Source: a virus (Duplodnaviria; Heunggongvirae; Uroviricota; Caudoviricetes). From it: a stretch of DNA of 64,000 nt. Under the pieces are notes generated by a model, which saw nothing but the letters and a program-made list of their open reading frames with translations, had not been told where the DNA came from and made no database searches. The stretch lies in IMG/VR virus record IMGVR_UViG_3300035494_000066. One strand, written 5' to 3'. Below are positions 4,044 through 27,497 of this stretch, in pieces. The position numbers and the translations under genes are program-made. How positions within the stretch are numbered: the stretch's first letter is position 1; every line of letters starts with the position of its first letter.

Positions 4044-4044
4044 A

Positions 4045-4120: not shown

Positions 4121-4124
4121 AGTT

Positions 4125-7058: not shown

Positions 7059-7700
7059 CTATTTACACGTGATCTTACTAATTTTTTCCACTATGCTTGA
7101 GTATGTAGAAGACGTGTACTCGGAGTCTACTAGATACGGTGTCTCGTATACTTGTACAATCTGTGTAGCTTGTGAAATAAATTGGTCAAACTCGTTAACG
7201 TCGCGGTTCAACATAGTGAATTCTTTGATTAGTTGTCTCAAGGTGTTGTTGTGCTTTACTAATACCTGTTCTAGTTCTTCGAGCTCAGGAAATTGATCCC
7301 AGCTTAGCTCGCTTAGTAATTCGGTAACATAGTGACAACTGTTTGCAACATATCCGTTTAAGAATCTTGACGTGTTCTTGAGTGCAACATTGCAATCTGA
7401 CAGTAAAGTTTCGACGTGTGTGTATTTTTGATCAACAACACGTTGCTTAGAAACAAAGTCTAACGCTACGTATCGGCTTAACATCTTCTTTGTTGTGCAG
7501 AACTTCTTTGTAATAGCTTGTTTAATTAGATCAGTTTTGCCGTCAATTGCATCCACTATTAGCGCAATCTGGTCCTGCTGTTTGACAATAATTGCAGTAG
7601 ATTGTTCAATTACCCGGTCACGTTTTGCAGTAGCAACGTTAATGGCTTCTTTTAGAGAATCAATTTCTGCAGCCGGGACTTTGCGCAAATCAACTTTCAT
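7059..7700 (-). CDS. hypothetical coiled-coil protein (213 aa)
   Basis: Long minus-strand ORF. No domain recognised. Confidence 0.5.
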   Translation of the reverse strand: MKVDLRKVPAAEIDSLKEAINVATAKRDRVIEQSTAIIVKQQDQIALIVDAIDGKTDLIKQAITKKFCTTKKMLSRYVALDFVSKQRVVDQKYTHVETLLSDCNVALKNTSRFLNGYVANSCHYVTELLSELSWDQFPELEELEQVLVKHNNTLRQLIKEFTMLNRDVNEFDQFISQATQIVQVYETPYLVDSEYTSSTYSSIVEKISKITCK

Positions 7701-8520
7701 GAAGTTTCCTTTTTGTGTTTAGTGACATCTGTACTATGGTGAAGTTGACTAGATGCTGAGTTAATCTTTTTGTTAGCAGTAACTTTAATCACTGACGTGT
7801 TAACAAGGACTACAGCAACAGCTATCATCGACGCAGCGTTAATAACAAATATCTCTAGTCCGTATAAAAATAGTTCCACAGCAGCTACTATCTGCTAATC
7901 AGTTGCGTAGTTAATTGTACACATTCGCTGCTAGTGTGTCAATTGAGACCCGGTGAGAGTGGCTCCGAATATAAAGTAGTCAGCGACGAACGTAAGTTCA
8001 GCACCGACGAAACTGATGCGTAGTACCTCCCTGAATAGTTCCACATCTGCTTAATTACAAACTACGCAACTATTACCCGGGCAGTGTAGGCAATGTTACT
8101 GAAGATTAGTGTCGACAGTAACGGTATTTCACTTGCACTAACGACAGCGGCATTATATAATGCCGCTGTCGTACACATAACTTACTTGTGCAGCTATTAA
8201 CACTGCGATATAGTAGTTGGTATACCGATGAATGAAGCGTACAATATGCGCAGTTATAAGCAGTCTGTACGCAACATACACAATGTTTGCAATCACTAAC
8301 TCCATGTTAGTCAGCAACGATACTTTCTTTGTATACAACTGGCTTACCGGTGTGTTGCATAAAGTCTACTAGGTTCCGGTAAGTTACTGGTGTAATTTGT
8401 TTTCGAAGTGCAGTTACTGCAGCTGTCATGTCGTCGCCGATAATCCATTCATACTCGCCGGTTTACCGACTTCTGATTTTCGAGACCAGCGCATTCAACC
8501 ACTCTGCCAACTTGCTAAAT

Positions 8521-8595
8521 TTGGCCTGCCTACCAGGACTCGAACCCGGATTAAAGGAGTAGAAATCCTCTGTGTTATCCGTTACACTATAGGCA
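8521..8595 (-). tRNA. tRNA-Arg (anticodon TCT)
   Basis: Hand fold. Acceptor ctgccta/taggcag, D gtgt/acac, anticodon arm gagga-tTTCTac-tcctt, T-arm ccgggttcgagtcctgg, CCA. Confidence 0.65.
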
Positions 8596-8825
8596 GGTGA
8601 AGTTTTACTTTGTGTGCTGTTTCCAGCGATTTAAATCTCGGAGCAGTTTATCTGCTCGATCAAATACATTTTGTAACATTAACCGTTCGTAGTCAGTTGG
8701 GTCATAACTAGGCGTGCCAACTGTTTCTTCTACTACCGCAGATCGAAGTTCTGCAATTTGAAGCAGCTTGTTGTCAATCCAACTTGTAGTATGGATGCTC
8801 ATTATTACTACTCCTTTTTAATGTA

Positions 8826-8911
8826 TGGTACCGATGAACGGACTCGAACTGTTACGCTATCTCTAGCAGAAGATTTTGAATCTCCTGTGTCTACCATTCC
8901 ACCACATCGGC
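8826..8911 (-). tRNA. tRNA-Leu (anticodon CAA), type II
   Basis: 86 nt. Acceptor gccgatg/catcggt, 3-bp D stem, anticodon arm ggaga-tTCAAaa-tcttc, 15-nt variable arm, T-arm aacagttcgagtccgtt, CCA. Confidence 0.6.
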
Positions 8912-9005
8912 ATAGTATGCGTTTTTACTTATCAGCGTAAGGCCGCACCCCCTGCTAATGAACTTTTTTAACGTAGTGTTCGTCTACGTTCACGGGCGTG
9001 TTGTT

Positions 9006-9186
9006 TGGTGCAAACGACGGGACTCGAACCCGCAATTACAGTTAACAAGGGCATTACTCCTTGCTAGTACAAGATTGGAAAAGCAGTCATCCCGCCTTGA
9101 AACCATGCTCCTGTGCTACTCGCTGTTAGGATTTTACTCCTCACTGTCCTTTTTCAGTGTGCGTATGCCATTTCCGCCACGTTTGC
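9006..9186 (-). ncRNA. tRNA-like RNA: canonical T-arm and 3' acceptor half with CCA, plus a matching 5' acceptor strand 181 nt away (insert of ~105 nt)
   Basis: 3' part gcgggttcgagtcccgt-cgtttgc-a-cca at 9006-9035. The complementary gcaaacg lies at 9180-9186. The interior contains a hairpin cactg-aaaaagga-cagtg. Confidence 0.3.
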
Positions 9187-9196
9187 ATGTTAAAAT

Positions 9197-9270
9197 TGGT
9201 GGGTCTGCCTGGAATCGAACCAGGACCGAGCGGTTATGAGCCGCCTGCTCGACCGTCAAGCTACAGACCC
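9197..9270 (-). tRNA. tRNA with CAT anticodon (Met elongator or Ile2-type; 1:72 paired)
   Basis: Hand fold. Acceptor gggtctg/cagaccc, D gctt/gagc, anticodon arm ggcgg-cTCATaa-ccgct, T-arm cctggttcgattccagg, CCA. Confidence 0.65.
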
Positions 9271-9963
9271 TTAAACTTTATTACTTGCGTAGTATACGCA
9301 TTTTTATTTATTATGTCAAGTATTTTTACATCACACTATACAAGCAGGCGTCTTAGCTGCTCTAGTATTAAAGTAACACCGCATTCTAGACCAACTCGGT
9401 ATAGTTACTTCCTAGACTTCTCTAGTTGACACAATACATGGTCATATAACTGATCGTGTTATATCGCGTCATGTCACTTGCTGTGTGCCGCAGCTATACA
9501 ATGTGATGTAAAAATACGCCTCGCGAAGCGTCACTAGTACCAATTTATCCAGTGATCTCATCTACACCAATGGAGGTCACTGTGATCCGGTGGTAATCGC
9601 CATATGCCTGATCCTGTATTAGGGCACCTGGTTTTACTGGGTTGTAGTTGCCGGTGCTGATCTCCGGCTTGCTGGTTGTGACATCTTAGGTTCCGTTTCA
9701 AACCATACAGCGCTGTATGTACGCGGTTCCCAGCGGCAGTCGGGCCAGCGACCATCTCAAGTCTTGAGATTCTTCGTGCGAGGATAAGTCGCACTTCATC
9801 TCGCGCATCAGCCTGCGCATTTACTACAACTAGAAGCATACTGCTGTTAGTGCTTGTATCGTCCGCACTCTTATACTCAGACAGTCTGCCGCTGCTCTCA
9901 CACCAACTCGCGTATTCTGGCGCAACAGCAATATGCTTGTAGTTTTAGTAAAATACAGTAATC

Positions 9964-10040
9964 TGGTGCCAGTAGTGGGATTCGAACCCACACTTTACAG
10001 AATCTCGACCTGCTACCTCTGCCAATTGGGCTATACTGGC
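9964..10040 (-). tRNA. tRNA-like (type undetermined; possibly degenerate or Leu-GAG-like)
   Basis: Perfect acceptor gccagta/tactggc, T-arm gtgggttcgaatcccac and CCA. D and anticodon arms fold poorly by hand. Confidence 0.35.
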
Positions 10041-10056
10041 TATCTCTTATATTGTT

Positions 10057-10085
10057 ATTGTATTTTCTATGTGCTTTTGTGTCAA
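10057..10085 (-). promoter_or_regulatory. sigma70-like promoter TTGACA-17-TACAAT directed into the tRNA-like element at 10040
   Basis: Minus-strand reading gTTGACAcaaaagcacatagaaaaTACAATaac. Consensus -35 box with 17-bp spacer. Confidence 0.5.
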
Positions 10086-10633
10086 CTACTTTTTGAGAGT
10101 TTTTACTGTTTCTTTTAGCTCGCATTCTTTAATTTTACGGATTGTAATGTAAGCTCCATAAATCATTACTGCTGACATAAACACAATCCCAGCGACACTA
10201 GGAATTACAGTCGACAACGTGTATGGATCGATATTTGGCATAGTTAGTCCTGTTGCAGGTTAGTATAATTTCAGAATGGAAGAATTAGCGCAACAATTGT
10301 GGAATTATACTTGCCTTTGTGCTTAGAGTAGCCTTTTTTAATAGCCTTTTTCTTATCAGTATGTGTAACGGCTTTGTTGTACTTTAATGCATTCTTTGCA
10401 ACGTAGTTTCTGTTATTCATCGTCTATCTCGTTTTTATTTTCTTTTTTGCTATGTTGCTGCTTGAGCTCGTGTGCTTGTTTGATCACTGATGCCTCGCAC
10501 GAAACGTTGATATCTCGCAGTCGAAAACCGCATGCTTGAATGTAGTTAATAGCAGTCCTGTAGTCCATTTGCAGCTCCGTTTAGTTTCTTATTTACCTGA
10601 ATATTATAGCAGAAACAGACTACAGGTCAACCT

Positions 10634-11080
10634 TTAATGTGATTTTTTCTCTTCGTCGTAGACACGTTTCCGCAGTGATGACGAACTAAACGAATGTTCG
10701 CGATCATTGAACACACACTTGTCCATGTGACCTGAGATGTCTTTGCCTGTAAAGTGCTTGGTTTTGTATTCATCGCCAAGAATACGAACATCATAGTCTA
10801 AGCACAGCAACAAGTCGTGCAAATCCTTCTCTGTGTGGTACACAATTGTGTGGTCTACATAACGTGAGGATGCTACTTGTATTTGGCGCTCAACGATCGA
10901 CTGTACTGGCTTATTCTTTGACGGACGATCTGCACTCGGGTCAATTTGGATTGCTACAATCAAATAGTCACAATGTTTCTTTGCGTCCCGGAACATCAAG
11001 TGATGCCCTGCATGACACAGGTCAAACGCACCAGCAGTAATGCCTACAGTCAAATTCTGTCTATTAGGAATGTCGATCAT
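10634..11080 (-). CDS. cytidylyltransferase-family nucleotidyltransferase (TagD / RfaE domain II-like, HxGH)
   Basis: GAFDLCHAGHHLMF (HxGH), DYLIVAIQID, ILGDEY and a C-terminal SSSSLR motif resemble glycerol-3-phosphate cytidylyltransferase. 148 aa. Confidence 0.6.
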   Translation of the reverse strand: MIDIPNRQNLTVGITAGAFDLCHAGHHLMFRDAKKHCDYLIVAIQIDPSADRPSKNKPVQSIVERQIQVASSRYVDHTIVYHTEKDLHDLLLCLDYDVRILGDEYKTKHFTGKDISGHMDKCVFNDREHSFSSSSLRKRVYDEEKKSH

Positions 11081-11409
11081 AAGTCTCTCTCATATTTTTC
11101 AAAAATAGCGATGAACACCAAGTCATCAGAGCTGCTATCGTTGTATACACGGTGGAAAGCGCCATCAGGTATCATAAAAAGAGAACCGCTCTCAACTTGG
11201 TAGAAATCGTTGTCGATTTGTATGCGGCCTGTCCCGGAATGAAAGATGTAAACCTCTTCAAGCCCTGGATGAGAGTGGCCGCGTGTCTGCATCTCAGGAT
11301 GCAATGTTGTTTTTGATACTGTTAGATGATTTAGGAACGTGTTATCTTCGAGTAAGTAAGTCTCGTTGTCTTTGATAACGGTTCCGTTTAAGTTTTGGAT
11401 TGATGTCAT
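11077..11409 (-). CDS. cupin-domain protein (110 aa)
   Basis: GHSHPGLEEVYIFHSGTGRI cupin motif. Start overlaps the upstream gene stop by 4 nt (coupled). Confidence 0.55.
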   Translation of the reverse strand: MTSIQNLNGTVIKDNETYLLEDNTFLNHLTVSKTTLHPEMQTRGHSHPGLEEVYIFHSGTGRIQIDNDFYQVESGSLFMIPDGAFHRVYNDSSSDDLVFIAIFEKYERDL

Positions 11410-11439
11410 ATTAATTGTGTATTATCTTTTTACCCGATA

Positions 11440-12075
11440 CTAAAGTATACTGCTTAGGAAAAGCTGGATATCCAGCTTTTCCTTAGAGCTTGCAGCAACT
11501 ATCTCAATAACCCGGGCGCGACCAACTACTCGCCCGCCGATTTTAAAGCATACACCGCGGTCAGTTTTTTCGATTGCAATTGGAGTTTTACGAGGGTTGC
11601 TGCCGCGGCTGTAAATGGTCATAGCAGCCGAACCGCCTTTTTGTACAGCTTCTTTCACAGCATTAACTGCAGCAGCAGCCTGCTTTGCACCAACTTCTAC
11701 ATCTGCATCAATTGCAGCTTGTTCAGCGTCACGCGCTGCAGCGTATTCGGCTTCTTTTTTAGCCCGGAACTCTGCATGCATTTTGCCTAGCTTGTCTAAG
11801 TCAATTGCTGCTGCAACTTCGGTGATTTCTTTAACTGCGTCAGCAAAATAAGAATATGCTTCAACATCGGACTCTACTTCTTTAGTGTCGCGTCCACCGG
11901 AAGAAACTGAAATTTCACAAGACCATTTCTCATCGCCGAACCCTACTGGACGAATATACAACCGGATCACGTCCGACCAAAAGCCTTTTACTTTTACTGA
12001 AACAGTTGGACGGGATTCAACAAGTTCTTCGTAGCTCGGAACAGAGTAAGAGTAGTTGTTGCTCATTTCTATCAC
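11440..12075 (-). CDS. hypothetical protein with Ala/Glu-rich central region (211 aa)
   Basis: Minus-strand ORF preceded by the TATAAT-leader promoter motif at 12083-12105. Confidence 0.5.
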   Translation of the reverse strand: MIEMSNNYSYSVPSYEELVESRPTVSVKVKGFWSDVIRLYIRPVGFGDEKWSCEISVSSGGRDTKEVESDVEAYSYFADAVKEITEVAAAIDLDKLGKMHAEFRAKKEAEYAAARDAEQAAIDADVEVGAKQAAAAVNAVKEAVQKGGSAAMTIYSRGSNPRKTPIAIEKTDRGVCFKIGGRVVGRARVIEIVAASSKEKLDIQLFLSSIL

Positions 12076-12144
12076 CTCAGTCGCTTAACTTATGCTTGTA
12101 TTATAGCACCGAGTGATACGAATGCAAGTGGTTTTTGCAATTAT

Positions 12145-12414
12145 CTAATTCTTTTCAACTAACTCAAGCAGTACGGATAGTCCGTGTGGGTTAGTTCCGT
12201 GCACAGTCCAGCGCTGACTTATGTCGTTAACGTTAATGCGGGCGTCTAACTCGTACGACACACTGTCAGACATTGTTACAACAAGCTTACAATATGCATT
12301 GTCGACTTTTTGAAACCCAGAAACATTAACGCTGTTGATTGTTAGCTCAGGACTGGTTGGCTTTCTTCTTTTGTACCAACTTTGCGGCATTACTTTAAAT
12401 GTGTATTCGGACAT
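12145..12414 (-). CDS. hypothetical protein (89 aa)
   Basis: Minus-strand ORF in the gene array. Confidence 0.4.
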   Translation of the reverse strand: MSEYTFKVMPQSWYKRRKPTSPELTINSVNVSGFQKVDNAYCKLVVTMSDSVSYELDARINVNDISQRWTVHGTNPHGLSVLLELVEKN

Positions 12415-12432
12415 TTAGTACCTTGTACAGCA

Positions 12433-12780
12433 CTACAACACCTTTAGTAATTTGAGTGCGTTTTTAGTTAATTGAACGTATGTGTAGTTTGTCGAGTACG
12501 GCTTGAACCCGTTGTACCGCTTCGTGGGAGAACTGAGTGATTCTCGTATACGGACTAAGTATCCTGTTTTGATTAGTTTTTGGAAATCTGCATCTCGGTT
12601 AATGACAAAGCAGTATCTGCGATTAACGGGTATTCGGAGATCACGACCGTAATCGTTAATGAACTTGAGTATAGCGTAGCGTCGAGGTTGACCCGACGAC
12701 ATTTGGCATATTTTGCGAAACGCTTCTGCTTTTGTTTCAACATGTATCGATTGGTTGAATGTCTTTTGCAAGTGCTTCAT
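12433..12780 (-). CDS. hypothetical basic protein (115 aa)
   Basis: Minus-strand ORF. Lys/Arg-rich. Confidence 0.4.
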   Translation of the reverse strand: MKHLQKTFNQSIHVETKAEAFRKICQMSSGQPRRYAILKFINDYGRDLRIPVNRRYCFVINRDADFQKLIKTGYLVRIRESLSSPTKRYNGFKPYSTNYTYVQLTKNALKLLKVL

Positions 12781-12794
12781 ACTATACTCGAAAT

Positions 12795-12870
12795 TGGCAG
12801 GTCGGGCGAGATTCGAACTCGCAACCTTGGTGTTTGGAGCACCCTGTTCTGCCGTTGGAACTACCGACCT
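12795..12870 (-). tRNA. tRNA-Trp (anticodon CCA)
   Basis: Hand fold. Acceptor aggtcgg/ccgacct, D gttc/gaac, anticodon loop cTCCAaa, T-arm gcgagttcgaatctcgc, CCA. Confidence 0.65.
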
Positions 12871-13057
12871 ATTTTTCTGTTATATCGAACTGACGCGTAG
12901 TATTTACACGTCTTAGCATACGAACTGTCGCTGTGACAGCTGTAATCTGCTTTAATGCACAACCCGTTTCGTGTAGTGCCCCAGTCCTTTATGCGAATAA
13001 AGTTAGTGCAGTTCCCACATGTTCTTCCAGTTGGCATATACATTTACTCTAAAATTG

Positions 13058-13131
13058 GCAGGGGTACCAAGAATTGAACTTGGACCACTGGAGTCAAAGG
13101 CCAGTGCTCTACCATTAAGCTATACCCCTAA
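13058..13131 (-). tRNA. tRNA-Gln (anticodon TTG)
   Basis: Hand fold. Acceptor aggggta/tacccct, D gctt/gagc, anticodon loop cTTTGac, T-arm ccaagttcaattcttgg, CCA. Confidence 0.65.
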
Positions 13132-13136
13132 ATTTG

Positions 13137-13211
13137 GAGGCGTGTGTGGGAATCTAACCCACAAAAACATGATTTGCAGTCATGCCCGTTAACATTCCGG
13201 CAACACGCCAA
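13137..13211 (-). tRNA. tRNA-Cys (anticodon GCA), U73
   Basis: Hand fold. Acceptor ggcgtgt/acacgcc, anticodon arm catga-cTGCAaa-tcatg, T-arm gtgggttagattcccac, discriminator T, CCA. Confidence 0.6.
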
Positions 13212-13356: not shown

Positions 13357-13385
13357 AGTATATTTATCTCTTACGTTCTTGTCAA
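13357..13385 (-). promoter_or_regulatory. sigma70-like promoter TTGACA-17-TATACT upstream of the Cys/Gln/Trp tRNA island
   Basis: Minus strand cagTTGACAagaacgtaagagataaaTATACTata. Confidence 0.5.
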
Positions 13386-13909
13386 CTGGTTATTTTTGGT
13401 TTGTCGACAATAAAATTTGCATATCGAGTTAAAAATCCTCTTAAACAGTCAAGCCTAGCCTGCGTTTTAGTCTGACTATCTGCTACTAGCACGTCGACAG
13501 GAACAGAAACTTGTCCTACTTGGAACAGCTCGTCTGCTAATTCTTTAGATTCTTTAAGACCTTTTCCAGACACTGACCGAATTGATTTAATTAATGTTAC
13601 TTTATCTAAGCCAGCAGCCCGGCGAGCATCGCAGCGCTTATTGTATTCGTCCCCGCGGGTACCCCCGTCGCAGAACGCTTCTGGGACCTTTAAGCGGATC
13701 GTATCGTCTGATCCTATACCTAGTCTGTATGTAGATGATAGTGCAGCCATTAGATACGTGTCGATAACTGTAATGTCGTACCGGTTTACTACTTCTTCGA
13801 TTTCTTGCAAGATTCTTAGAGTAGTATCCGCTGACTCGGTAAGTGCATCGAGCTCCGACTTAAGCCAGTGTATTAAGACGGTATTCTCAAATGATTTCAT
13901 ATAAGGCAC
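13382..13909 (-). CDS. protein with C-terminal ribosomal L7/L12 C-terminal-domain-like region (175 aa), paralogue 1
   Basis: DKVTLIKSIRSVSGKGLKESKELADELFQVGQVSVPV aligns with the bL12 CTD core (vIKavRgaTGLGLKEAKdLVE). Paralogous to 13927-14427. Confidence 0.55.
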   Translation of the reverse strand: MPYMKSFENTVLIHWLKSELDALTESADTTLRILQEIEEVVNRYDITVIDTYLMAALSSTYRLGIGSDDTIRLKVPEAFCDGGTRGDEYNKRCDARRAAGLDKVTLIKSIRSVSGKGLKESKELADELFQVGQVSVPVDVLVADSQTKTQARLDCLRGFLTRYANFIVDKPKITS

Positions 13910-13926: not shown

Positions 13927-14427
13927 TTAATGTACACTGACAATAAACTGTTTAAACTGTTGATTAAACTCTCGGATAGCAGCAAGGTATTCAGTTACAT
14001 CTTCTAGTGACATTGTGAGCTGTGTTGCAGGTATTGATATCGAAGTTGATTTGCGAATCATCAATTCGTCTACTGAATTTTTTGCATCTTTAAGCAAAAC
14101 TCTAGAAACTTGTCTGATAGCTTTTATCATGCGTACACGATCTATGCCTAGATCAGATAACTTGCTGTATAGACCCTGACGCACTGCTAGTTGCTGCAGC
14201 AGAACTTCGATGTCTGCTGGCAATGCTAAATCGATTTGCACAGCAGATCCTTTGCCGGTTGAAAATTGATCAGTTAATACTGCTGCTACATAGCCACTGA
14301 TAAAAGTAATGTCGTACTTGTTTAAGGTGCATTCGATGTCGTTAAGAAGATCATGTACGTTTACAGTTCCGCCAGAGATTCCGTTAACAAGCCAGTTGAT
14401 GGCAATTGTATTATTGAGCGGTTTCAT
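13927..14427 (-). CDS. protein with L7/L12 CTD-like region (166 aa), paralogue 2
   Basis: Shares NKYDITFISGYVAAVL and RVRMIKAIRQVSRVLLKDAKNSVDEL blocks with the upstream paralogue. Confidence 0.5.
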   Translation of the reverse strand: MKPLNNTIAINWLVNGISGGTVNVHDLLNDIECTLNKYDITFISGYVAAVLTDQFSTGKGSAVQIDLALPADIEVLLQQLAVRQGLYSKLSDLGIDRVRMIKAIRQVSRVLLKDAKNSVDELMIRKSTSISIPATQLTMSLEDVTEYLAAIREFNQQFKQFIVSVH

Positions 14428-14453
14428 ACCTAACCCCAGATAGTTAAGTTAGA

Positions 14454-14708
14454 TTACTGTTGACTCTGACTCAGTAATGCTAACATAGCATATTCCTCCG
14501 GAGCCTTGCATAAATTAGTTCGATATACGTTAGCTTGCTCAGACCAGGTATTAGTGACTCGCTCTACGCGAACCGTTTTCGGATTAAACTTAACAATCCT
14601 GCCGATGTCTAAGCATCTAGAATATGGAGGCGTGTACACAACCAAGTCGCCGACACTAATGTCTTGTCCTAGCATGTCAGTCATTGGATATTCTACATTA
14701 GTAGCCAT
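14454..14708 (-). CDS. hypothetical protein (84 aa)
   Basis: Minus-strand ORF downstream of a TTGACA-17-TATAAT promoter at 14734-14762. Confidence 0.45.
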   Translation of the reverse strand: MATNVEYPMTDMLGQDISVGDLVVYTPPYSRCLDIGRIVKFNPKTVRVERVTNTWSEQANVYRTNLCKAPEEYAMLALLSQSQQ

Positions 14709-14733
14709 TGGGGTTCTCCTTGTGTAATACGTA

Positions 14734-14762
14734 TATTATACACGACTAGCAGAGTGTGTCAA
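14734..14762 (-). promoter_or_regulatory. sigma70-like promoter TTGACA-17-TATAAT
   Basis: Minus strand gagTTGACAcactctgctagtcgtgTATAATata. Confidence 0.5.
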
Positions 14763-15373
14763 CTCCGACAGCGAATTAAATCTTTATTTTTGAAATAGTC
14801 AACAACCACAGACCATGGCGCACTGTAAAGACTGCTGTTTTTGGACACACGGAGTGAAATGGTCCAACGGTCGGATCGGCTAGGGTAAACTGTGTGTAAC
14901 TCGCGGATATTAACAAGCACAGGGCTAGTACCAATAATACACTCGTCGACTAGATCATCTTTGCAAACATCGGCGATGTCCACTTCGCCGAAGTAATAGC
15001 TGTCTAGATTTGATGTGTTTAGTTTGTACTGTTCGCCGCTGAACCATGCCATCACTGAGGTGCACTCCTTGCTTGTCCAGTTGATTGCAAATGTTATATC
15101 GTCTGCGGGACTAGCATCAGTGTGTATAGTGTGATCAAACTGTCCGGCTTCTCTGTAAAAGATTACACACGAGTCAACATCTAGGCCTAAGTTTGACATG
15201 TAAGAAAGCCACTCTGGCTTTAGTAAGCTGTCAAGGAGACGGCCGTGGTATTTCCATACATAAAGGCCGTCTGTGTGCTCTGCTGCAGATTCGAGCAGTT
15301 TAGGTAAAGAAAAGTCGTCGACGAATGCATTCGACACGTCAGTTTTTACATCGTACCACATGTGATCGGGCAT
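14759..15373 (-). CDS. putative 2OG-Fe(II) oxygenase superfamily protein (AlkB/TET-like HxD...H...RxxxSxR), 204 aa
   Basis: HTIHTD (HxD), then ELHTVY (distal His), then DRWTISLR resembling the AlkB RxNxTxR 2OG-binding motif. Confidence 0.4.
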   Translation of the reverse strand: MPDHMWYDVKTDVSNAFVDDFSLPKLLESAAEHTDGLYVWKYHGRLLDSLLKPEWLSYMSNLGLDVDSCVIFYREAGQFDHTIHTDASPADDITFAINWTSKECTSVMAWFSGEQYKLNTSNLDSYYFGEVDIADVCKDDLVDECIIGTSPVLVNIRELHTVYPSRSDRWTISLRVSKNSSLYSAPWSVVVDYFKNKDLIRCRS

Positions 15374-15376
15374 TAT

Positions 15377-16381
15377 TTATAGCTCTCGGTTGTTTATGTA
15401 TTTAGTAAAATCTCCATAAACAGTAATCACGTATCGCGGCTCGTTGCTATAGTTACACGCTGCATGTGCAAATTGATGAGTGTTCACTAGCATGGGATGC
15501 GTGAGGTTCGAAACACCACCGTGCATGAACTTCAATGGCGCTCCTGGGCTCGGAACCTTAACTGGAATATACATTTTTGGACTAACCGGAGCTTCACATC
15601 CGTCTATATGAATTTCAACAAATCCACCTGGCTCAAGTTTGTTGATATAAAGGCCGTACAGCTCAGTTATACCTAAGCTCAAAAGCCAATTGGTAACATA
15701 CGGTAGCTCGTCACGGTGTTCGTTGACACTATAAACATTAGACCAGTCGGTGTTACCTGGGCCTTTGTTGTGGTCGCGGAGAACTGACCATCCTTTGTGT
15801 CGGCTGTAATGTGTAGCACTGCTAGACTGCGAAAGTAACTCGAGCACTTCGGTTGCAGCAATATCTTGATTAAATTCTTCGTTAACAACATAGTACGGCG
15901 CAGTATCTGACCCTTTTTTATAGTAAAACGGACCGTACGGATGCTCGAAAAAACTGCGCACAGAAGTTGACTCAACTACCTCCGGAACAGAAGTTCCGCT
16001 GTCGCACATTACGTAGTACTCGTCAAACAAGTCAGTGCCGTACTTACCGTCTGGGAGTACAGTTTTGTAATGGGCTCGCATAACACCTAGATTGCTATGG
16101 ACCATTAACTTAAAATGTCCTGTTTTTTGATCAACATACGTTGCAGGACAGGTTATTACGCCGGTTTGAGATTCCTCAAACCACCCGGTGTAAAGGATCT
16201 CACTAATCGATTGCCCGTTAATTAGGATATCGTCGATTTTAATAAGATCACCTTCGGGTTTAACCAAAAGCATTTGCCAGCCATTGTGCATAAGAGCTTC
16301 GTGACGGCCAGTGATTACATTGCCTGATTGTAATAAAGAAAAAGCACTAGGTGTGCCTAGTACTTTTATTGTTGAACTCAT
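15377..16381 (-). CDS. hypothetical protein (334 aa); C-terminal HxD...H pattern (EIHID ... THQFAH) could indicate a second cupin/oxygenase fold
   Basis: Long ORF tightly packed between the oxygenase-like gene and folE. Only weak motif evidence. Confidence 0.45.
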   Translation of the reverse strand: MSSTIKVLGTPSAFSLLQSGNVITGRHEALMHNGWQMLLVKPEGDLIKIDDILINGQSISEILYTGWFEESQTGVITCPATYVDQKTGHFKLMVHSNLGVMRAHYKTVLPDGKYGTDLFDEYYVMCDSGTSVPEVVESTSVRSFFEHPYGPFYYKKGSDTAPYYVVNEEFNQDIAATEVLELLSQSSSATHYSRHKGWSVLRDHNKGPGNTDWSNVYSVNEHRDELPYVTNWLLSLGITELYGLYINKLEPGGFVEIHIDGCEAPVSPKMYIPVKVPSPGAPLKFMHGGVSNLTHPMLVNTHQFAHAACNYSNEPRYVITVYGDFTKYINNREL

Positions 16382-16382
16382 G

Positions 16383-17054
16383 TTAACCTCGCGCTAGTGA
16401 CATAAACTCTGCCCTGGTAGTAGGATCTTCTTTAAAAGCACCGCCTAGCTTGCTTGTTACAGTGCTAGACCCAGTATCTTCTACACCACGCGCTGCTACA
16501 CAATAGTGTTTTGCGTCAATGACTACTGCTACATCTTCTGTTTCGAGAATGTAGCACAAGGCGTGAAAGACTTGCTCAGTAAGCCGTTCCTGGATCTGCG
16601 GCCGTTTCGAGAAGTACTCGACTACCCTGTTAATTTTTGACAATCCTAGGACTTTTTCGTTAGGGATATAGCCAACAGTTGCAAAACCGTCAATGACAAC
16701 AAAGTGGTGTTCGCAGTTGCTCTTGACATTCACATTACGTTCTACAACCATTTCGTTGTAACCCATTTTGTTTTCGACTGTTGTACACTTAGGAAACGCA
16801 TCTGGATCTAAGCCCCAAAACACTTCGCCTACGTACATTTTTGCGACCCGCTTCGGCGTTTCGGCTAAGCTATCGTCACTTAGGTCTAGACCTAAGGTTT
16901 CCATGATGTCTTTAAACTTTGTTTCAATAATATCGATTTTTGCAGTGCGGGAAAGATCTGTTTCAATTGTAGGAGTCGATACGCCTACGCTTGCAAGATG
17001 TTCGTGAACCATACGACCTAATTCAGGGTCGCATTTTGTTTTGTTAAAACTCAA
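16383..17054 (-). CDS. folE: GTP cyclohydrolase I (FolE), TTG start
   Basis: Conserved FolE core NCEHHFVVIDG and overall FolE-like sequence, 223 aa. A TTGACA-17-TATAAT promoter lies at about 17130-17180. Confidence 0.8.
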   Translation of the reverse strand: MSFNKTKCDPELGRMVHEHLASVGVSTPTIETDLSRTAKIDIIETKFKDIMETLGLDLSDDSLAETPKRVAKMYVGEVFWGLDPDAFPKCTTVENKMGYNEMVVERNVNVKSNCEHHFVVIDGFATVGYIPNEKVLGLSKINRVVEYFSKRPQIQERLTEQVFHALCYILETEDVAVVIDAKHYCVAARGVEDTGSSTVTSKLGGAFKEDPTTRAEFMSLARG

Positions 17055-17173
17055 TTGTATTTCTCCTTTAGATAGCGTCTAACGTTAACGCTCAACGGAC
17101 TAGTGTATAGTCGAATGTCACCGTTGTGTGACAGAGTATTTATTTTAAATTATACAGTTAAGACGTATTCTTG

Positions 17174-17590
17174 TCAACTATATCTTCCTTTTCCAGGGAT
17201 AACATTCCTTACACCTCCGGTTGGATCTTCAGTGTCATTGTTACGTCTGAATATCAAATGTACATGCGGGTACATAACAGTTTGTCCGGCGCTTTTGCCG
17301 ACATTGATCCCGATGTTGTATCCGGTGATATCAGTTGCCTCGCTTGACACATTTTGGTTTCCTAGCTCGAGTGCTGCCCGGGTACAGCTAGCAATGCATT
17401 CTGCAGAGTTTGTTTTTGGAACAAATAACATATGTCCCGGAGTAACCGGGTACTTGTCATTAAATGCAACATAATCTTTAGTTACGAACGCCACATCGTC
17501 CCATGGTGCCGTACCAGCTTGCTGTGCCCGCTGTAAGTCGTTAGTCAAGGTAGTACACTCCGTTATTCCAGTTGCTAGGCAATCCGGCAT
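17174..17590 (-). CDS. HIT-family (histidine triad) nucleotide hydrolase/transferase
   Basis: HVHLI histidine-triad motif near the C-terminus. 138 aa. Confidence 0.6.
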   Translation of the reverse strand: MPDCLATGITECTTLTNDLQRAQQAGTAPWDDVAFVTKDYVAFNDKYPVTPGHMLFVPKTNSAECIASCTRAALELGNQNVSSEATDITGYNIGINVGKSAGQTVMYPHVHLIFRRNNDTEDPTGGVRNVIPGKGRYS

Positions 17591-17966
17591 CTAAATACTC
17601 GTTAATGCGATCTGCTAAGACAGTATAAAACGAATCTAGCTCGCCTCCTAGCGATCCTACTAACATTGAAATCTTGTTTAGTGCAGCGTCTAGCTGTCCG
17701 GCTCTGTATTCGTCGATCATGGACTCGTGTAGTAGTTTAATGGCTCTCAGACTAGGCAAATCATCTAGCGACAGCTTTCCTGCGTCGATAAGAGCATACG
17801 ACTGTGTAGTAGACTGCGCCTGGTCAGAGCTGCTGCCAAAAACATCAAGTCGGAACAGCGTATGTCGATCTTTGATATCGTTCGTTAAGTTGTTTTCTAA
17901 AATTATATCCATAACTCGCCTTATTGTGTTATATACCAACCGTACTCTTTTATATCGTGTCTCCAT
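17541..17966 (-). CDS. hypothetical protein (141 aa)
   Basis: Minus-strand ORF overlapping its neighbours within the operon. Confidence 0.4.
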   Translation of the reverse strand: METRYKRVRLVYNTIRRVMDIILENNLTNDIKDRHTLFRLDVFGSSSDQAQSTTQSYALIDAGKLSLDDLPSLRAIKLLHESMIDEYRAGQLDAALNKISMLVGSLGGELDSFYTVLADRINEYLDAGLPSNWNNGVYYLD

Positions 17967-18370
17967 CGATAAAACGGTTTCGGAATATGTAACGTTAGTG
18001 TGCCGTTAAATCCTAAGTATGGCATCGGAGGTAGTTCACCGAATTCAGTATGGTACTTTCCGAATCGAAAAATATTCTCTGCCACATTAACATCGTCTAT
18101 GTATAACTCGTCGATTATAACAGCAGTTTCTTTCTCTACATAGTGCTTATTCTGCATGGATACTGTGATTGTAACGTCGTCTAACAACGGTATAGACGTG
18201 TTAACGTGTACATCATTGTACAAGTCGCAATCTAATAGAGTAATGCCGTTTACTGTCACAGTAACGCCAGGGAAGCCGGCGTCGACTATAGGACGTAACT
18301 TAGCTCTTACTTGAAGACGTAGGTCGCTGGTATCCGTGCCGGATAAAAAGTTCTGTATACACTGGGACAT
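17921..18370 (-). CDS. hypothetical protein (149 aa; true start may be internal)
   Basis: Overlaps the rSAM gene by about 70 nt. Confidence 0.4.
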   Translation of the reverse strand: MSQCIQNFLSGTDTSDLRLQVRAKLRPIVDAGFPGVTVTVNGITLLDCDLYNDVHVNTSIPLLDDVTITVSMQNKHYVEKETAVIIDELYIDDVNVAENIFRFGKYHTEFGELPPMPYLGFNGTLTLHIPKPFYRWRHDIKEYGWYITQ

Positions 18371-19610
18371 AATCTAATATTGAATTTTTCCTTACTGCTT
18401 CTATCTTAGTTATAAACGATATCAAGTCAGCAAACCTATAAGTGTCACTAGGCGCCGAGTTAAGATAGTTGATATAACTTGTCACATCATGATACAAACT
18501 TGATTCTACTACAGACGGCGCTCGGGCATTAGGATTAGAAGCACTCCTTGACACCTGTTCGGAGAATGTAGAGTCTCGCCAATTGGTAAGATCCTCGACA
18601 ATCGTTGCTCGAACACTGTCGGGCAAGACAGTTGGCCGCATGTACTCTGGAAATTCCAAGAAATTACAACTCTCTACGCTCATACTGTTTGCAAGTGCGT
18701 ACTCGTATATAGGGATTAGCTTGTGTACAGTAAAGATGGTAGGTGTTGTTCGGAGTTGGATTAACCATTTAACTCCGTCGTTAAGACTTGCCCAGCGATC
18801 TAGCTCAGCTTTTGCATCAGCAATGTTAGATCCGTATCGCACATAGTCATTGACTTCGTCTAGTGACTCAATACTTAGTCCGACATGCACTTGCCTAAAC
18901 TCGTGTAACAAGTGAACGATACTATCGTCCCAGCTGGATAAGTTTGTAGTAAACCCGATTATAACTTTGTTTGCTACACCAGCTGCTACAATTTCATTAA
19001 TTAAACGCTTAAATGCTGGGATAATTAACGTTTCACCGCCGATGAAATGCAAGTATGCCGGCTGATTCAGCTTAACTAGATCATTAACAAATTTGTCAAC
19101 TAGGTCTGGATCATCAGTCCAGTTTTTGTGAGAGTGCGAATCGATTATTTTTGCTTTTATCAAATCGTGCGCTAGTCGGCTACTCGATTCTGGTTTGCAA
19201 AATATACATGCATTATTGCAGTAATTTCCTAGATCTATTTGCCAGTCGACCGGAAATATCTGAGCAGTAGAATCCGTTAGCCTGTCTTTCCATTCTGAGC
19301 TTAGTAGAGATTTTTCAAACGCAGTTATGTCGATACCGGTCTTAATTAGCTGCTGTGCTCTACCACTGGTTTTTCCATACTTGTCCATGTTGTAACACGG
19401 AGTACAATTATGCACAACTTCGCCGTTGACATGTTGTTGCCTAACAGCTTGCATCACATTATTAAAGTATTCCAAAGGAGACATATCGGATATGTGGGGC
19501 ATTGTAGATGGGCGATACGCCCATCTACAATAGTTGTAGTGCCCCGACGCAGTTATCCGGAAATGAAACCAAGGGCTCGAGCAAAATGTTGTTTTGAGGT
19601 CAGACATCAA
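18300..19610 (-). CDS. radical SAM enzyme, SPASM/twitch-type, with N-terminal Cys-rich domain (436 aa)
   Basis: CNNACIFC (CxxxCxxC), [14 protein letters not shown] and ESLDEV blocks parallel the 4734-6197 protein. N-terminal CTPCY...GRAQQ motif. Confidence 0.75.
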
Positions 19611-20227
19611 TTTCTTTTAGTAACTACTTCGTCGGCAAAACCGTTTGCAACTGCTTCACTGGCCGACAAAAACGTATCGAATTTCATTGTTTCGAACAGT
19701 TCGTCGTATGTCTTGCCAGCAGTGTTGTGATGCTCGTACAGTTGTGTTAGCCGTTCGTTTAGGCGCTTCGATTCTTGCAAGTGTCGTGCTGCATCTTCGA
19801 ATTCAAGTTCCTGGACGTGCACAGATCCGGTAGTACCTCGCGTTCCTGAGCTTACTCGGTGGATCATTGTGCGAGACTCTGGTAGTACAAACCGCTTGCC
19901 AGGAGCGCCAGCTTGAGCTAGGAAACTACCCATTGAAGCTGCTTGGCCTAGGACAATAGTCGATACATCAGGGCGAATAAATTGCATAGTGTCGTAAATT
20001 GCCAAGCCTGCAGTTACTGAGCCACCAGGAGAATTGATGTACATAATAATGTCTTCAGTTGGCGATTCTGCTTCTAGGAATAACAGCTGTGACACAACTA
20101 AGTTAGCCATACTGTCAGTGACCGGGCCGTTGAGCATCACAATGCGGTCTTTCATGAGTCGACTGTAAAGGTCGTAACTACGCTCGCCCTGTGATGTTTG
20201 TTCGACTACGATGGGTACTAGGTTCAT
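19607..20227 (-). CDS. clpP: ATP-dependent Clp protease proteolytic subunit ClpP homologue
   Basis: ClpP family. [10 protein letters not shown] active-site Ser, conserved His/Asp context. 206 aa. Stop overlaps the rSAM start. Confidence 0.8.
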
Positions 20228-20840
20228 TGATTTTTCCTTAATTAACGTTAACGTGAAACTTCTTATCGATAAAGTGGCTGTATGCTGATTTTACTGTATC
20301 TTCGCTTACCCCGGGTACGTTTCTTATTACAAATCTCAATGCATGTTCCTTATCCATGTACATTACACTTGCTTCTTGCAGTGCGTATTCGATGTTTGAG
20401 CTATTACTAAGATCTGTCATTTGTTGTACTCCTACTGCTATGTCTAGTTAGTATAGCAAGAGTAGCAATTTTTGCAACCAGTTATTTTCTATAAAGTTTT
20501 ACAGCTTCTTCAACAAGAGACATTGATGTGTGCTTCGCATCGTTTAGCGCAGCATACACTTCGCGAAGTGTAGTAGCGCCTGCTAGATTAGCTGCAGTTG
20601 CAGTGTATGCGCACATACAGAAGAACGAGTACTGCAGACATGCATTAACTATAGAAGCGCTTACAGAAGCATTTAGACGTCTTGCTGCGGATCGATGTGT
20701 AGTTGGTACTGTTAGTTTAATACTCATGTTCTAGGATAATATCAAAAGTAGACAACAAGTGTTCGGGTGTAGAAATGCGTAGGTACTCGATAGCACGCCA
20801 CGTGACTACAATCACATGCTGTCTAACTCGGATTAGTGCT

Positions 20841-22166
20841 CTAAATTTTTTCACCCGGAGCAAAGCCCCTGAACGTTTTAAATCTCGGGAATCTTAGCGA
20901 GTACGTACCGTCTTGGTTTTGCGTTATCGCATCTGCACGTATCTCTACTAGATTGTTAACACACAACTCTCTAAAATCCCAGTATTGCTGCCGTTCTCGG
21001 TCACTAAAGCCGCTGCCGCAGTTAACTTCGATATAACAACCATCGTCTGTTCCTTTGCACACAAATGCACCTAGACGACCTTCGTTGCGACCGGTCCCTT
21101 CTTCAACAGCAACTACAGTTAGCGTAACTTCGATGAACGGTTTAATCTTAAGCCAACTAGCAGTACGTTTACATTCATACGGCGCAAGAGGGTCTTTAAG
21201 CATAATACCTTCGTATCCGCCGTCGATTGCACGTTTATTGATTTCGTTGAGCTCAGTCTTGCCAGCCGGGGTATCTAGGTTAATATCGGCATACTCAAGC
21301 AACTCTACATTTTCTAATTTTGTAAACACGTTCTCTGTGTTATAAAATTTGTGTAACTGCTTGAGTCGATCGAGCTGAGAAGTAGAGCACTGACCGTTCA
21401 TAAAGTCTGCAAGTGGAATCATGTCAAACAAGAATAGCACAGCATCCTCTGCAGCTACGTCTTTTTTGCGCCGTACTTGTTTCATTAGGTCTTGAAAACT
21501 GCTAGACATAATCTCGCCATCGAACACGTACGGCTCGGACAGCATAGCTGCAATATTACTAAACTGTTCTTCGATGTGGGTAAAGTTAGAAAATTGTTTT
21601 CCGTTGCGACTAAACATAGTTACGCCGCCGGATGGATAAACGATCGTTATAGTGCGAACTCCGTCTAGTTTAGTTTCGACTAGTTTCCGGCCTGCGATCT
21701 TTTTTTCATGCTTTGCACCGTCGTGTGCTAGTTGGCAACTAAACACCGGAACTTGGTACTTAGGCAGTTTCTTTGCCTTTGCAACTTTGTTAACAGTTTT
21801 TTCAGAGACACCGCACCGCAAGTCTTTAATTAAAATCCGACGATACCAGTTGTTCCACTGGTCTGCTGTAGCAACATCCATTGCAAGGTTAATTGCATCT
21901 CTTGCTGCATGCCCAGTTAGTTCCCTGCGTTGCAACTTCTCAGCTAAATCGAGAAAAACGTCCCATGGTAATCCTTGACTAGGCGTGTCTTCTTTTGACG
22001 GAACTTGCTTGACGCCGAATGTGCATAATGTGTCAAGGCACATTCTAACACCTAGGAAAAACTCATCTAAGACTTCGTCCATCGCATCGGCTAAAATTTG
22101 TTCTTTTGCTAACCTCGAATTATCTGCTTCGAGTTTTTTGATAATATCTTGTGGTTGTGTTCTCAT
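20841..22166 (-). CDS. ATP-dependent DNA ligase
   Basis: Motif I KLDGVR (KxDG), EGIMLK motif, 441 aa with an OB-fold region. Confidence 0.8.
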   Translation of the reverse strand: MRTQPQDIIKKLEADNSRLAKEQILADAMDEVLDEFFLGVRMCLDTLCTFGVKQVPSKEDTPSQGLPWDVFLDLAEKLQRRELTGHAARDAINLAMDVATADQWNNWYRRILIKDLRCGVSEKTVNKVAKAKKLPKYQVPVFSCQLAHDGAKHEKKIAGRKLVETKLDGVRTITIVYPSGGVTMFSRNGKQFSNFTHIEEQFSNIAAMLSEPYVFDGEIMSSSFQDLMKQVRRKKDVAAEDAVLFLFDMIPLADFMNGQCSTSQLDRLKQLHKFYNTENVFTKLENVELLEYADINLDTPAGKTELNEINKRAIDGGYEGIMLKDPLAPYECKRTASWLKIKPFIEVTLTVVAVEEGTGRNEGRLGAFVCKGTDDGCYIEVNCGSGFSDRERQQYWDFRELCVNNLVEIRADAITQNQDGTYSLRFPRFKTFRGFAPGEKI

Positions 22167-26381: not shown

Positions 26382-27497
26382 TTAAACTAGCAGCTGTTCA
26401 AGGTTGATGTTGTTAGACTCGGAGAACATTTCTGCTTTTACTAGCAGGTTTTCATCTTCATCATAGAATACGACAGTGTTGCCTTCTCGTACAACAATGT
26501 CTCCGAGATCAACGACCGCGTAATCAGTGTACGAGTCTGAGGTGCCCGGATTGACAACAAATCGAACTTTAGACGATTTAGTACCGACTGGCATGTCAAT
26601 GACGTCGAACCCTGTACGGACTTCTACCGGTGTGTCGGACCCTTTTTTCAGCAGCTGATTGATGCGCAGTTTGTTAGAAGTGCCGCCTAGCGGATTATAC
26701 GGAGTATCTACGTTTAGATCACTAATCAGCTCAGTCACCGACCCGCCGTATCGCTTGTACTCTTCGATGATAGCTTGCAGCACATCAAACGAGAACTCGA
26801 ACATCCGGAATGCAAGTTCTGCAATTTCTTCTGCAACACTGTCCGGAACGCCTTGGTCTTTGCAATAATCTAGGATTGCAGATTCTTCAAGCTTTCCGTA
26901 ACGGAAGTGATAGTGCACACGCCCCGGGCGGTTACGCATAAACTCGTTAACTTTGAACTCGTTGTTTTCTGTTAGGATAATAAGCCGCTTCTGACTTCCT
27001 GTACCGTCAAACAGCGTTAGCAGATTGTTCTGCGGGTCGTCGTCTTCTGTTGCGTTGAACGTTTTTGCAAACTCGTCGAAAAACATAGCACACTCGCCGA
27101 TGTTATTAACAAATTCGTTAAACCCAGAGCCGCTGAACGGTTCGTTGACAGTAATAACTGGTAGACCTTGGTCGATGACAGTATTGGCGATGATGGAGCT
27201 AGTTAGAGTTTTCCCTGCGCCTTTGTCGCCAGTTAGCATAACACCAGTTGAAGATGTTCTGCTGTTATAAGTAGTAACTACTTTGTTAGCACGGGCCAGA
27301 GCTGAGCCATATACTTTTTCAGGGACAGTAAACCGTTCCTTTTCGTACGTTAGGTAAAAACCGCGGTTCGGGTGAAATCTAGCAGAATACACAGCTGGGC
27401 GAAGTGTATCAGTGAAGTCAGATACTTGCAGACTTAGAACCTGTACAGTGTTACCGTCCTTAAGGAACTTAGTAGTTTTCATTGAATGTTCTCTCAT
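26382..27497 (-). CDS. AAA-family ATPase (371 aa)
   Basis: GDKGAGKT Walker A and DEF Walker B-like motifs. Preceded by a TTGACA-17-TACACT promoter at 27521-27549. Confidence 0.6.
   Translation of the reverse strand: MREHSMKTTKFLKDGNTVQVLSLQVSDFTDTLRPAVYSARFHPNRGFYLTYEKERFTVPEKVYGSALARANKVVTTYNSRTSSTGVMLTGDKGAGKTLTSSIIANTVIDQGLPVITVNEPFSGSGFNEFVNNIGECAMFFDEFAKTFNATEDDDPQNNLLTLFDGTGSQKRLIILTENNEFKVNEFMRNRPGRVHYHFRYGKLEESAILDYCKDQGVPDSVAEEIAELAFRMFEFSFDVLQAIIEEYKRYGGSVTELISDLNVDTPYNPLGGTSNKLRINQLLKKGSDTPVEVRTGFDVIDMPVGTKSSKVRFVVNPGTSDSYTDYAVVDLGDIVVREGNTVVFYDEDENLLVKAEMFSESNNINLEQLLV

Follow-up and report, generated by a model that had tools for sequence, protein, structure and literature searches.

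Do the eight closely packed minus-strand genes at positions 14759–20227 of the IMG/VR virus record IMGVR_UViG_3300035494_000066 encode a single biochemical pathway? The stretch of DNA analyzed here, referred to below as the window, is 64 kb of the ~302-kb genome of a large phage (metagenomic contigs with genes identical to those of the window reach 302,565 bp). From its upstream end, the array encodes the protease subunit ClpP, a radical S-adenosylmethionine (radical-SAM) enzyme, a 149-aa protein that we call the partner, a 141-aa open reading frame (ORF) product, a HIT protein, the GTP cyclohydrolase I FolE, a 334-aa protein and a 204-aa protein. The initial annotation had treated these genes as one operon specifying a candidate uncharacterized modification pathway. 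The evidence presented below favors, with a probability of roughly 0.6, a different reading, that of a mosaic region made up of at least two units and not of one pathway, with a phage radical-SAM enzyme and its partner, often accompanied by ClpP, as its core. All eight ORFs are present as originally delineated, and the identities of ClpP, the radical-SAM enzyme, HIT and FolE were confirmed by profile searches.

Co-occurrence and transcriptional layout of the eight genes

Loci encoding the radical-SAM enzyme were collected in a scan of IMG/VR, which yielded 77 loci with 10-kb flanks, and all eight proteins were compared with these loci by tblastn, 84 loci being counted in that comparison; for counts within the orthogroup, 63 loci correspond to 51 clusters at 90% identity. 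The ClpP matches (50–78% identity) stop at the start of the radical-SAM gene, and the partner homologue begins within its 3′ end. The 141-aa ORF, HIT, FolE, the 334-aa protein and the 204-aa protein match nothing within 10 kb of the radical-SAM gene in ~60 related loci. Co-conservation thus extends to three of the eight genes, and the notion of an eight-gene conserved pathway is left unsupported by the five that never recur near the enzyme as well as by a promoter that separates FolE from the preceding genes.

The association of the radical-SAM enzyme with its partner is strict. The partner gene overlaps the 3′ end of the radical-SAM gene in 63 of 63 loci (51 of 51 clusters), mostly by exactly 32 nt, and when IMG/VR was searched in reverse, with the partner's own motif, a radical-SAM gene was found directly upstream in all 34 loci recovered. 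Nine of the latter are new contigs which encode a 35%-identical radical-SAM enzyme and lack ClpP. A still more distant pair, consisting of a 27%-identical radical-SAM enzyme and an overlapping partner-like gene, is present on contig L085. Because the linkage is strict in both directions, we regard the enzyme and its partner as the robust unit. ClpP is a frequent and positionally fixed companion of this pair in one large clade: a canonical clpP lies −74 to +31 nt from the radical-SAM start in 42 of 61 loci (37 of 50 clusters), two length classes of the protein occupy this same position, and the next most common neighbor of the cassette is found in 33 of 64 loci. Pairwise identities of the radical-SAM enzyme correlate with those of the partner (Spearman 0.50) and barely with those of ClpP (0.11). 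Pfam searches with the other recurrent neighbors of the cassette were uninformative, and literature searches returned nothing specific on a radical-SAM–partner–ClpP cassette.

The promoters are in line with this division. Across the whole window, the pattern TTGACA-N16–18-TATAAT occurs perfectly six times and each time on the minus strand; 0.07 sites would be expected. Judging by their sequence, the six sites look like strong early promoters for the host sigma-70 factor that delimit small transcription units. One of them is contained in the 119 nt that separate HIT from FolE; another follows the last gene of the array directly, marking the start of the next unit (Table 1). Since these two perfect promoters bracket the genes for FolE and for the 334-aa and 204-aa proteins exactly, the three are assigned to a unit of their own, an addition to the cassette encountered in this phage alone. 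The start codon of folE is a TTG preceded by AAGGAG, a good Shine–Dalgarno sequence. The −10 box of the folE promoter is followed at once by a perfect palindrome, TGTCAC-N6-GTGACA, which could be an operator or a hairpin of the 5′ untranslated region. An Rfam search of positions 14000–21000 detected zero RNA families, riboswitches included.

Of the original one-operon description, the common strand and the tight packing hold, whereas the internal consensus promoter and the conservation of only part of the array do not fit it. The clpP stop codon and the radical-SAM start codon share the sequence TGATG, and 71 nt are common to the radical-SAM gene and the 149-aa ORF. The 149/141 and 141/HIT pairs overlap by ~46–50 nt when taken as maximal ORFs; on identical contigs, gene callers picked shorter starts, which give products of 112, 123 and 124 aa, the 123-aa product being that of the 141-aa ORF.

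Table 1. Coordinates of the array, the consensus promoters and other features of the window
Feature	Position	Strand	Description
ClpP	19607–20227	−	206 aa, S14 serine protease subunit
Radical-SAM enzyme	18300–19607	−	435 aa
Radical-SAM partner	17921–18370	−	149 aa
141-aa ORF	17541–17966	−	no family
HIT	17174–17590	−	Pfam HIT
FolE	16383–17054	−	223 aa, GTP cyclohydrolase I type IA
334-aa protein	15377–16381	−	2-oxoglutarate (2OG)/Fe(II) oxygenase
204-aa ORFan	14759–15373	−	AlkB-like motif only
Sigma-70 consensus promoter	17149–17177	−	TTGACA-N17-TATAAT, 12/12
Sigma-70 consensus promoter	14735–14762	−	perfect, overlaps stop codon of the 204-aa ORFan
Other perfect promoter	187–215	−	TTGACA-N16–18-TATAAT
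Other perfect promoter	4701–4728	−	TTGACA-N16–18-TATAAT, beside the 487-aa paralogue
Other perfect promoter	6669–6696	−	TTGACA-N16–18-TATAAT, beside the 487-aa paralogue
Other perfect promoter	34040–34069	−	TTGACA-N16–18-TATAAT
Palindrome	17116–17133		TGTCAC-N6-GTGACA
Radical-SAM paralogue	4734–6197	−	487 aa
Short radical-SAM gene	45359–46225	−	288 aa
tRNA genes	18–13209	−	29 genes
Abnormal tRNA call	3968–4043		two-base anticodon
Tandem paralogue 1	13382–13909	−	175 aa
Tandem paralogue 2	13927–14427	−	166 aa
AAA protein	26382–27497		generic weak AAA match
Acb3 homologue	27993–28751	−	Pfam PF25187, 1.8e-60

The radical-SAM enzyme and its partner

The radical-SAM enzyme matches the Radical_SAM Pfam model (1.8e-10) and, along its full length (residues 7–421), the NF033640 family ("twitch domain-containing radical SAM protein"; 223.2 bits versus a cutoff of 170). 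Its true start is the ATG one codon past the TTG originally listed, and exactly this 435-aa product is on record. In an alignment of 17 sequences, the invariant cysteines are those of the CX3CX2C motif (C130/C134/C137), N-terminal C9, C27, C68 and C71, and C314. The initial designation of the protein as a SPASM enzyme has to be abandoned: the auxiliary cysteine cluster is N-terminal, as in NF033640, the C-terminal Cys-rich (SPASM) motif is absent, C314 is the sole invariant cysteine after the core, and the last 100 aa, helical in the structural model, contain zero invariant cysteines. Its separation from QueE was correct, the enzyme being a member of the N-terminal-twitch subfamily. In common with NF033640, it displays an N-terminal Cys-rich auxiliary-cluster region followed by the CX3CX2C core. 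That family carries no function name in NCBIfam, however, and the overlapping partner, the ClpP neighbor and the confinement to phages were not met with in the literature searched. The orthogroup is phage-restricted: there are 1745 metagenomic homologues of the enzyme, yet among 185,579 bacterial and archaeal species genomes the orthogroup was found on only 2 short contigs of metagenome-assembled genomes, and it was not found in 50,697 GenBank phage records except for two matches at 21% identity.

Outside its own family, the best hidden Markov model (HMM) matches of the enzyme are SkfB and MftC, and its nearest relatives by HMM or fold include the peptide and protein modifiers SkfB, MftC, SuiB and anSME, which is the reason why we lean toward peptide or protein chemistry. 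The fold is equally close to those of BlsE, MoaA and viperin, enzymes acting on nucleotides and sugars.

Two further radical-SAM genes are found in the window (Table 1). The 487-aa paralogue is a second enzyme of the N-terminal-twitch type (NF033640, 236 bits), which has a ~120-aa N-terminal extra region and shares 23% identity with the first copy; it is bracketed by two of the perfect promoters and preceded by small ORFs (49 and 60 aa), and no partner-like gene adjoins it. The 288-aa product yields weak matches to W-cofactor maturase, ScmF and MoaA-type models. Together with the 435-aa enzyme, these two genes bring the number of radical-SAM enzymes within 64 kb to at least three.

Members of the partner family range from 81 to 164 aa and fall into long forms of ~140–160 aa and short forms of ~82 aa, the latter without the internal segments, such that the middle of the protein tolerates deletions of ~60 aa. 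Conservation is concentrated in the C-terminal motif PFYxWxHxxSGQGWLLxP, with an additional conserved ..ILPKY.. stretch, and G144 is the only invariant residue. The N-terminal sequence MKNFSDLLAT of the partner and the C-terminal sequence YEELFRSAGY* of the enzyme are encoded by one shared nucleotide stretch and are both conserved. Among 46 partner sequences we detected no Pfam family and no RRE or PqqD-like domain, and no credible relative of the family was found in the PDB. A profile match to 2p1a (E = 0.002), which we take to be a helical protein, covers a short stretch and was dismissed as a chance hit. Long-form partners also share a YLG[FIYV]NG segment (approximately residues 125–131 of the 149-aa protein). 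Clp ATPases use IGF/LGF loops to dock on ClpP, and the LGF tripeptide is similar to these; the likeness may be coincidental, given that short forms lack the segment.

Gene identities, promoters, co-occurrence statistics and folds are results of the analysis; we infer the substrates, the role of the partner and the coupling to ClpP. The core of the first unit (20227–17174) would be the N-terminal-twitch radical-SAM enzyme and its small partner, with a host-like ClpP encoded before the pair in one large clade. The enzyme would cleave S-adenosylmethionine at a [4Fe–4S] cluster held by CX3CX2C, and the auxiliary cluster of the four N-terminal cysteines would assist the enzyme in modifying a protein or peptide substrate by radical chemistry. 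ClpP would form complexes with ClpX or ClpA of the host, in which proteins are degraded or trimmed; it is possible that it acts on the modified partner directly. The second unit (17177–14759) would be expressed from its own early-type consensus promoter, with FolE converting GTP into dihydroneopterin triphosphate, followed by an oxygenase resembling the protein hydroxylases common in marine T4-like phages and then by an ORFan.

We lean toward the view that the conserved part of the array is concerned with protein or peptide chemistry on the C-terminal motif of the partner. Quite possibly, albeit at somewhat less than even odds, the partner itself is the substrate of the radical-SAM enzyme and is modified in its aromatic- and glycine-containing motif PFYxWxH..GQGW. 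It is also possible, with a little less confidence, that the partner is a non-catalytic subunit of the enzyme. The initial annotation had mentioned, as its second option, maturation of a peptide or protein by the radical-SAM enzyme and the peptidase. This option suits the conserved part of the array better than the nucleotide idea does, its chemistry being conjectural. Enzymes paired in one operon with a dedicated protein are exemplified by anSME/AtsB and sulfatase, PflA and PflB or GrcA, and NrdG and NrdD, and in the partner, too, an invariant glycine is followed by an aromatic residue (..RVSGQGW.. in short forms), presumably in loose resemblance to the RVSGY loop of glycyl-radical proteins. 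However, none of the 46 partners matches the Gly_radical or sulfatase Pfam families, and the radical-SAM enzyme does not belong to an activase family.

It should be noted that several observations weigh against the interpretation developed so far. A downstream, translationally coupled partner gene is more usual for a subunit than for the precursor of a peptide that is made on ribosomes and modified after translation (RiPP), and the conserved N-terminal decapeptide of the partner provides no separate evidence for a leader peptide because its nucleotides are shared with the C-terminus of the enzyme. Since approximately a quarter of the lineages lack ClpP, the pair needs no phage-encoded ClpP. 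A small-molecule substrate is also conceivable because the BlsE, MoaA and viperin folds match equally well. As for the layout, no convincing terminator was seen in the HIT–FolE interval, so that read-through from the first unit into the second is possible, and co-transcription is still compatible with an internal promoter. Finally, the window covers 64 kb of ~302 kb, and Que or Dpd genes could be located elsewhere in the genome. Our confidence in the mechanism is therefore low, with a subunit role and a small-molecule substrate both remaining as candidates, whereas our confidence in the modular architecture is high.

FolE, ClpP and competing explanations

The assignment of FolE is secure (NF006824, 312 bits; TIGR00063, 241 bits; Pfam, 1.6e-62), and its CEHH and HYC motifs, which we take to be zinc ligands, are readable. 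The closest phage homologues are those of KVP40-like vibriophages (65% identity to that of KVP40), and in KVP40 the gene sits in a QueD(PTPS)–FolE–x–QueF–QueC cluster. The two phages further share the NAD-salvage genes for NAMPT and phosphoribosyl pyrophosphate (PRPP) synthetase and a large tRNA set. Unlike in KVP40, FolE of the window is followed by the 2OG oxygenase and an ORFan, and PTPS, QueC, QueF, QueE and TGT are missing from the window. The most successful of the alternatives holds that FolE feeds standard preQ0/preQ1 modification of DNA or tRNA, the genes for QueD, QueE, QueC and DpdA being situated outside the window. The KVP40-like context of the closest homologues speaks in its favor, as does the fact that the window covers about a quarter of the genome. 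However, Pfam searches detected none of the families QueD, QueC, QueF and TGT/DpdA among 74 minus-strand ORFs of at least ~60 aa in the window, Que/TGT genes are likewise absent from the ~10 kb past its left end, and in KVP40 the Que genes are contiguous with folE. The original observation that QueD and QueC are missing thus holds and extends to TGT, and the array was rightly distinguished from a standard Que cluster. We consider complementation from outside the window conceivable, on balance somewhat against the odds, and FolE is most likely a remnant or a detached member of a KVP40-type 7-deazaguanine/preQ supply route.

The 334-aa protein, initially listed as unknown, turns out to be a demonstrable 2OG/Fe(II) oxygenase. 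It consists of an N-terminal beta-rich domain of ~130 aa and a C-terminal double-stranded beta-helix of the 2OG/Fe(II) oxygenase type with the catalytic motif H258-x-D260...H306...R316, in which HxD...H and the basic residue are invariant. In structural comparisons, L-Pro cis-4-hydroxylase, AspH and phage Fe2OG proteins match it best, and the fold is nearer to amino-acid and protein hydroxylases than to nucleic-acid oxygenases. Comparison by tblastn with phages yielded no match, and a word-indexed homologue search returned only the protein itself; an exhaustive HMMER search detected 118 remote relatives, identity to named proteins being at most 26% over the full alignment. In other phages, homologues occur without FolE, HIT or the 204-aa protein. 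The double-stranded beta-helix with HxD...H...R is shared with the Asp/Asn/Pro-hydroxylase-like oxygenases of cyanophages and marine T4-like phages, from which the protein differs by its extra N-terminal domain. On the T4-like contig L085 (8001–8966 and 12691–14509), a homologue of the 334-aa oxygenase is encoded ~4 kb from the 27%-identical radical-SAM enzyme, which is the sole instance observed of these families lying close together.

For the 204-aa protein, the earlier designation as 2OG-oxygenase-like derives from a motif: H84xD86...H160...R169xTxSxR175 resembles the RxNxTxR signature of AlkB. The full motif, which was defined post hoc, arises in 0.2% of shuffled sequences and its HxD..H..R core in 32%. 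Profile and structural support did not materialize, the protein matching only itself among 5.8 billion proteins and having no match in Pfam, PHROG, NCBIfam or the PDB. It may be a second, AlkB-like oxygenase. The idea that it is a diverged version of the catalytic domain of the 334-aa protein was rejected, since hhalign and hmmsearch performed no better than with shuffled controls, despite parallels discernible by eye. HIT (Pfam, 1.7e-10; phrog_19494, 3e-16; PDB HIT proteins, 1.7e-8) carries the motif YPHVHLI, in which the first histidine is replaced by tyrosine and the middle and last histidines are kept; judging from its sequence, it is a nucleotide hydrolase or transferase of the Hint branch that is lineage-specific at this position. 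The 141-aa ORF has no match in Pfam, PHROG or NCBIfam and no homologue at the related loci. Both genes are add-ons particular to this phage.

ClpP, at the head of the array, is assigned with equal certainty (Pfam CLP_protease, 1.8e-63; NF001368, 249 bits). The protein starts at the mature N-terminus, retains the Ser/His/Asp triad and aligns closely with E. coli ClpP over approximately residues 1–125, with the GQAASMG and MIH sequences and the Asp position conserved; the handle region contains a 10-aa insertion. These sequence features identify it as a genuine ClpP and set it apart from S14/S49 relatives of the prohead-protease type. Since the triad and the E. coli-like N-terminal two-thirds are kept, the surface for docking of an unfoldase would be host-like as well. 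No ClpX-like gene was found near clpP, and the AAA protein of the window was dropped as a candidate phage unfoldase because its AAA match is generic and weak and not ClpX-like. In ~30 loci besides L018 (6267–6839), L039 (7784–8359) and L052 (9429–9995), a second, divergent ClpP-like protein of ~190 aa (25–30% identity, with apparent Ser/His/Asp) is encoded 2–4 kb upstream; it is the sole ClpP-like gene near the radical-SAM gene in some loci and has no counterpart in the window.

The neighborhood of clpP and the radical-SAM pair might reflect nothing but synteny inherited within one family of large phages, with ClpP acting independently, for example by remodeling the host proteome or in maturation of the head, the annotation given to it in PA5oct-like phages, and the radical-SAM pair being unrelated to it. 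The closest ClpP from isolated phages is that of the Pseudomonas phage PA5oct group (65% identity), which is reported in virions and likewise has a DNA ligase gene nearby, but lacks the handle insertion and is not followed by a radical-SAM gene and partner. This, the weak correlation between the distances of ClpP and the radical-SAM enzyme, and the ClpP-less clade with the 35%-identical enzyme all agree with mere synteny. Conversely, the stop/start overlap or near-abutment of the two genes is maintained in 37 of 50 lineages while the flanks change, and both ClpP length classes hold the same position. On this evidence we deem the purely syntenic explanation unlikely, although it deserves consideration.

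Less probable still is that ClpP, the radical-SAM enzyme and the partner together form a system for a peptide-derived product comparable to pyrroloquinoline quinone, mycofactocin or darobactin, in which the radical-SAM enzyme would crosslink aromatic residues of the partner motif and ClpP with a host unfoldase would degrade the remainder and free the modified peptide or cofactor. The systems PqqE/PqqD/PqqA/PqqF, MftC/MftB/MftA/MftE, SkfB and SuiB resemble the phage cassette in combining a radical-SAM enzyme that has auxiliary Fe–S clusters with a linked small protein, with a protease gene alongside. The bidirectional linkage of enzyme and partner, the conservation focused in a short aromatic C-terminal motif next to a deletable middle (82 versus ~150 aa), the HMM proximity to peptide maturases and the protease gene adjoining the radical-SAM start in most lineages are all consistent with such a system. 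It differs from the known ones, however, in that the auxiliary domain is N-terminal and not a C-terminal SPASM/twitch domain, no RRE is detectable, the partner (81–164 aa) is encoded downstream of and overlapping the enzyme gene, and the protease is a subunit of the ClpP chamber rather than a dedicated leader peptidase. ClpP is a processive chamber protease and is not known to serve as a leader peptidase. The quarter of lineages without adjacent clpP and the nearly uncorrelated divergence of ClpP and the radical-SAM enzyme likewise argue against such a system. The broader proposition that ClpP, the N-terminal-twitch enzyme and the partner constitute a phage protein-radical or peptide-maturation system of an undescribed kind is likewise speculative.

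The initial proposal, that all eight genes produce a new modified base or nucleotide for which FolE supplies a pterin or deazapurine precursor, the radical-SAM enzyme rearranges it, HIT handles the nucleotide and the oxygenases decorate it, can draw on the packing of the genes on one strand, the action of FolE and HIT on nucleotides, the proximity of the radical-SAM fold to the GTP cyclase MoaA, BlsE and viperin, the AlkB-like motif of the 204-aa protein and a set of at least 29 tRNA genes in which the queuosine-receiving tRNAs with GUN anticodons (Asp, Asn, Tyr and His) are represented, but is made very improbable by the absence of five of the proteins beside the radical-SAM enzyme in ~60 related loci, the occurrence of 334-aa homologues without FolE, the perfect promoter dividing the array, the lack of QueD, QueC, QueF or TGT in the window and the affinity of the 334-aa fold to amino-acid and protein hydroxylases.

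Genomic setting and significance

Nearly all genes of the window lie on the minus strand. The tRNA genes occupy its left part and include duplicates for Pro, Ile, Asp, Phe, Glu, Tyr, Ala and Met; one of the 29 is called with an abnormal two-base anticodon (Table 1). The window encodes an accessory set reminiscent of T4 and KVP40, namely DNA ligase, NAMPT, PRPP synthetase, RNA ligase, topoisomerase II and a homologue of Acb3, an inhibitor of the antiphage system CBASS, which is located ~8 kb upstream of ClpP. By megablast, positions 14700–20300 have no relative at the DNA level among GenBank phages. Two tandem paralogues encoded next to the array resemble ribosomal protein L7/L12 in its C-terminal domain at a sub-threshold level (E = 1e-4 and 1e-3 for the 175- and 166-aa proteins, respectively). 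Contig L103 belongs to the same phage and, just past the left end of the window (6504–11826 on the contig), carries genes for thymidylate synthase, a Thg1-like tRNA-His guanylyltransferase, a methyltransferase and a 458-aa flavin-dependent tryptophan-halogenase-like protein.

The analysis corrects an attractive reading of the locus as a FolE-based nucleotide pathway, since its FolE is most likely a relative of the preQ-cluster enzyme of KVP40 that has become detached from such a cluster. Radical-SAM genes without a known role are numerous in the large phages of marine and fresh waters, one published genome containing twelve radical-SAM genes (PMC5332604), and the present work isolates one such gene as part of a strictly paired two-gene module. 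This radical-SAM–partner module is restricted to phages and spans no fewer than 51 lineages, in most of which a host-like ClpP adjoins it; these properties make it a concrete, clonable target. If the proposed peptide chemistry is correct, the radical-SAM enzyme would install a crosslink or another radical modification in the PFYxWxH..GQGW tail of the partner, and ClpP docked to host ClpX or ClpA would process the latter. Large aquatic phages would then use a conserved modified peptide, cofactor or protein in the course of infection.

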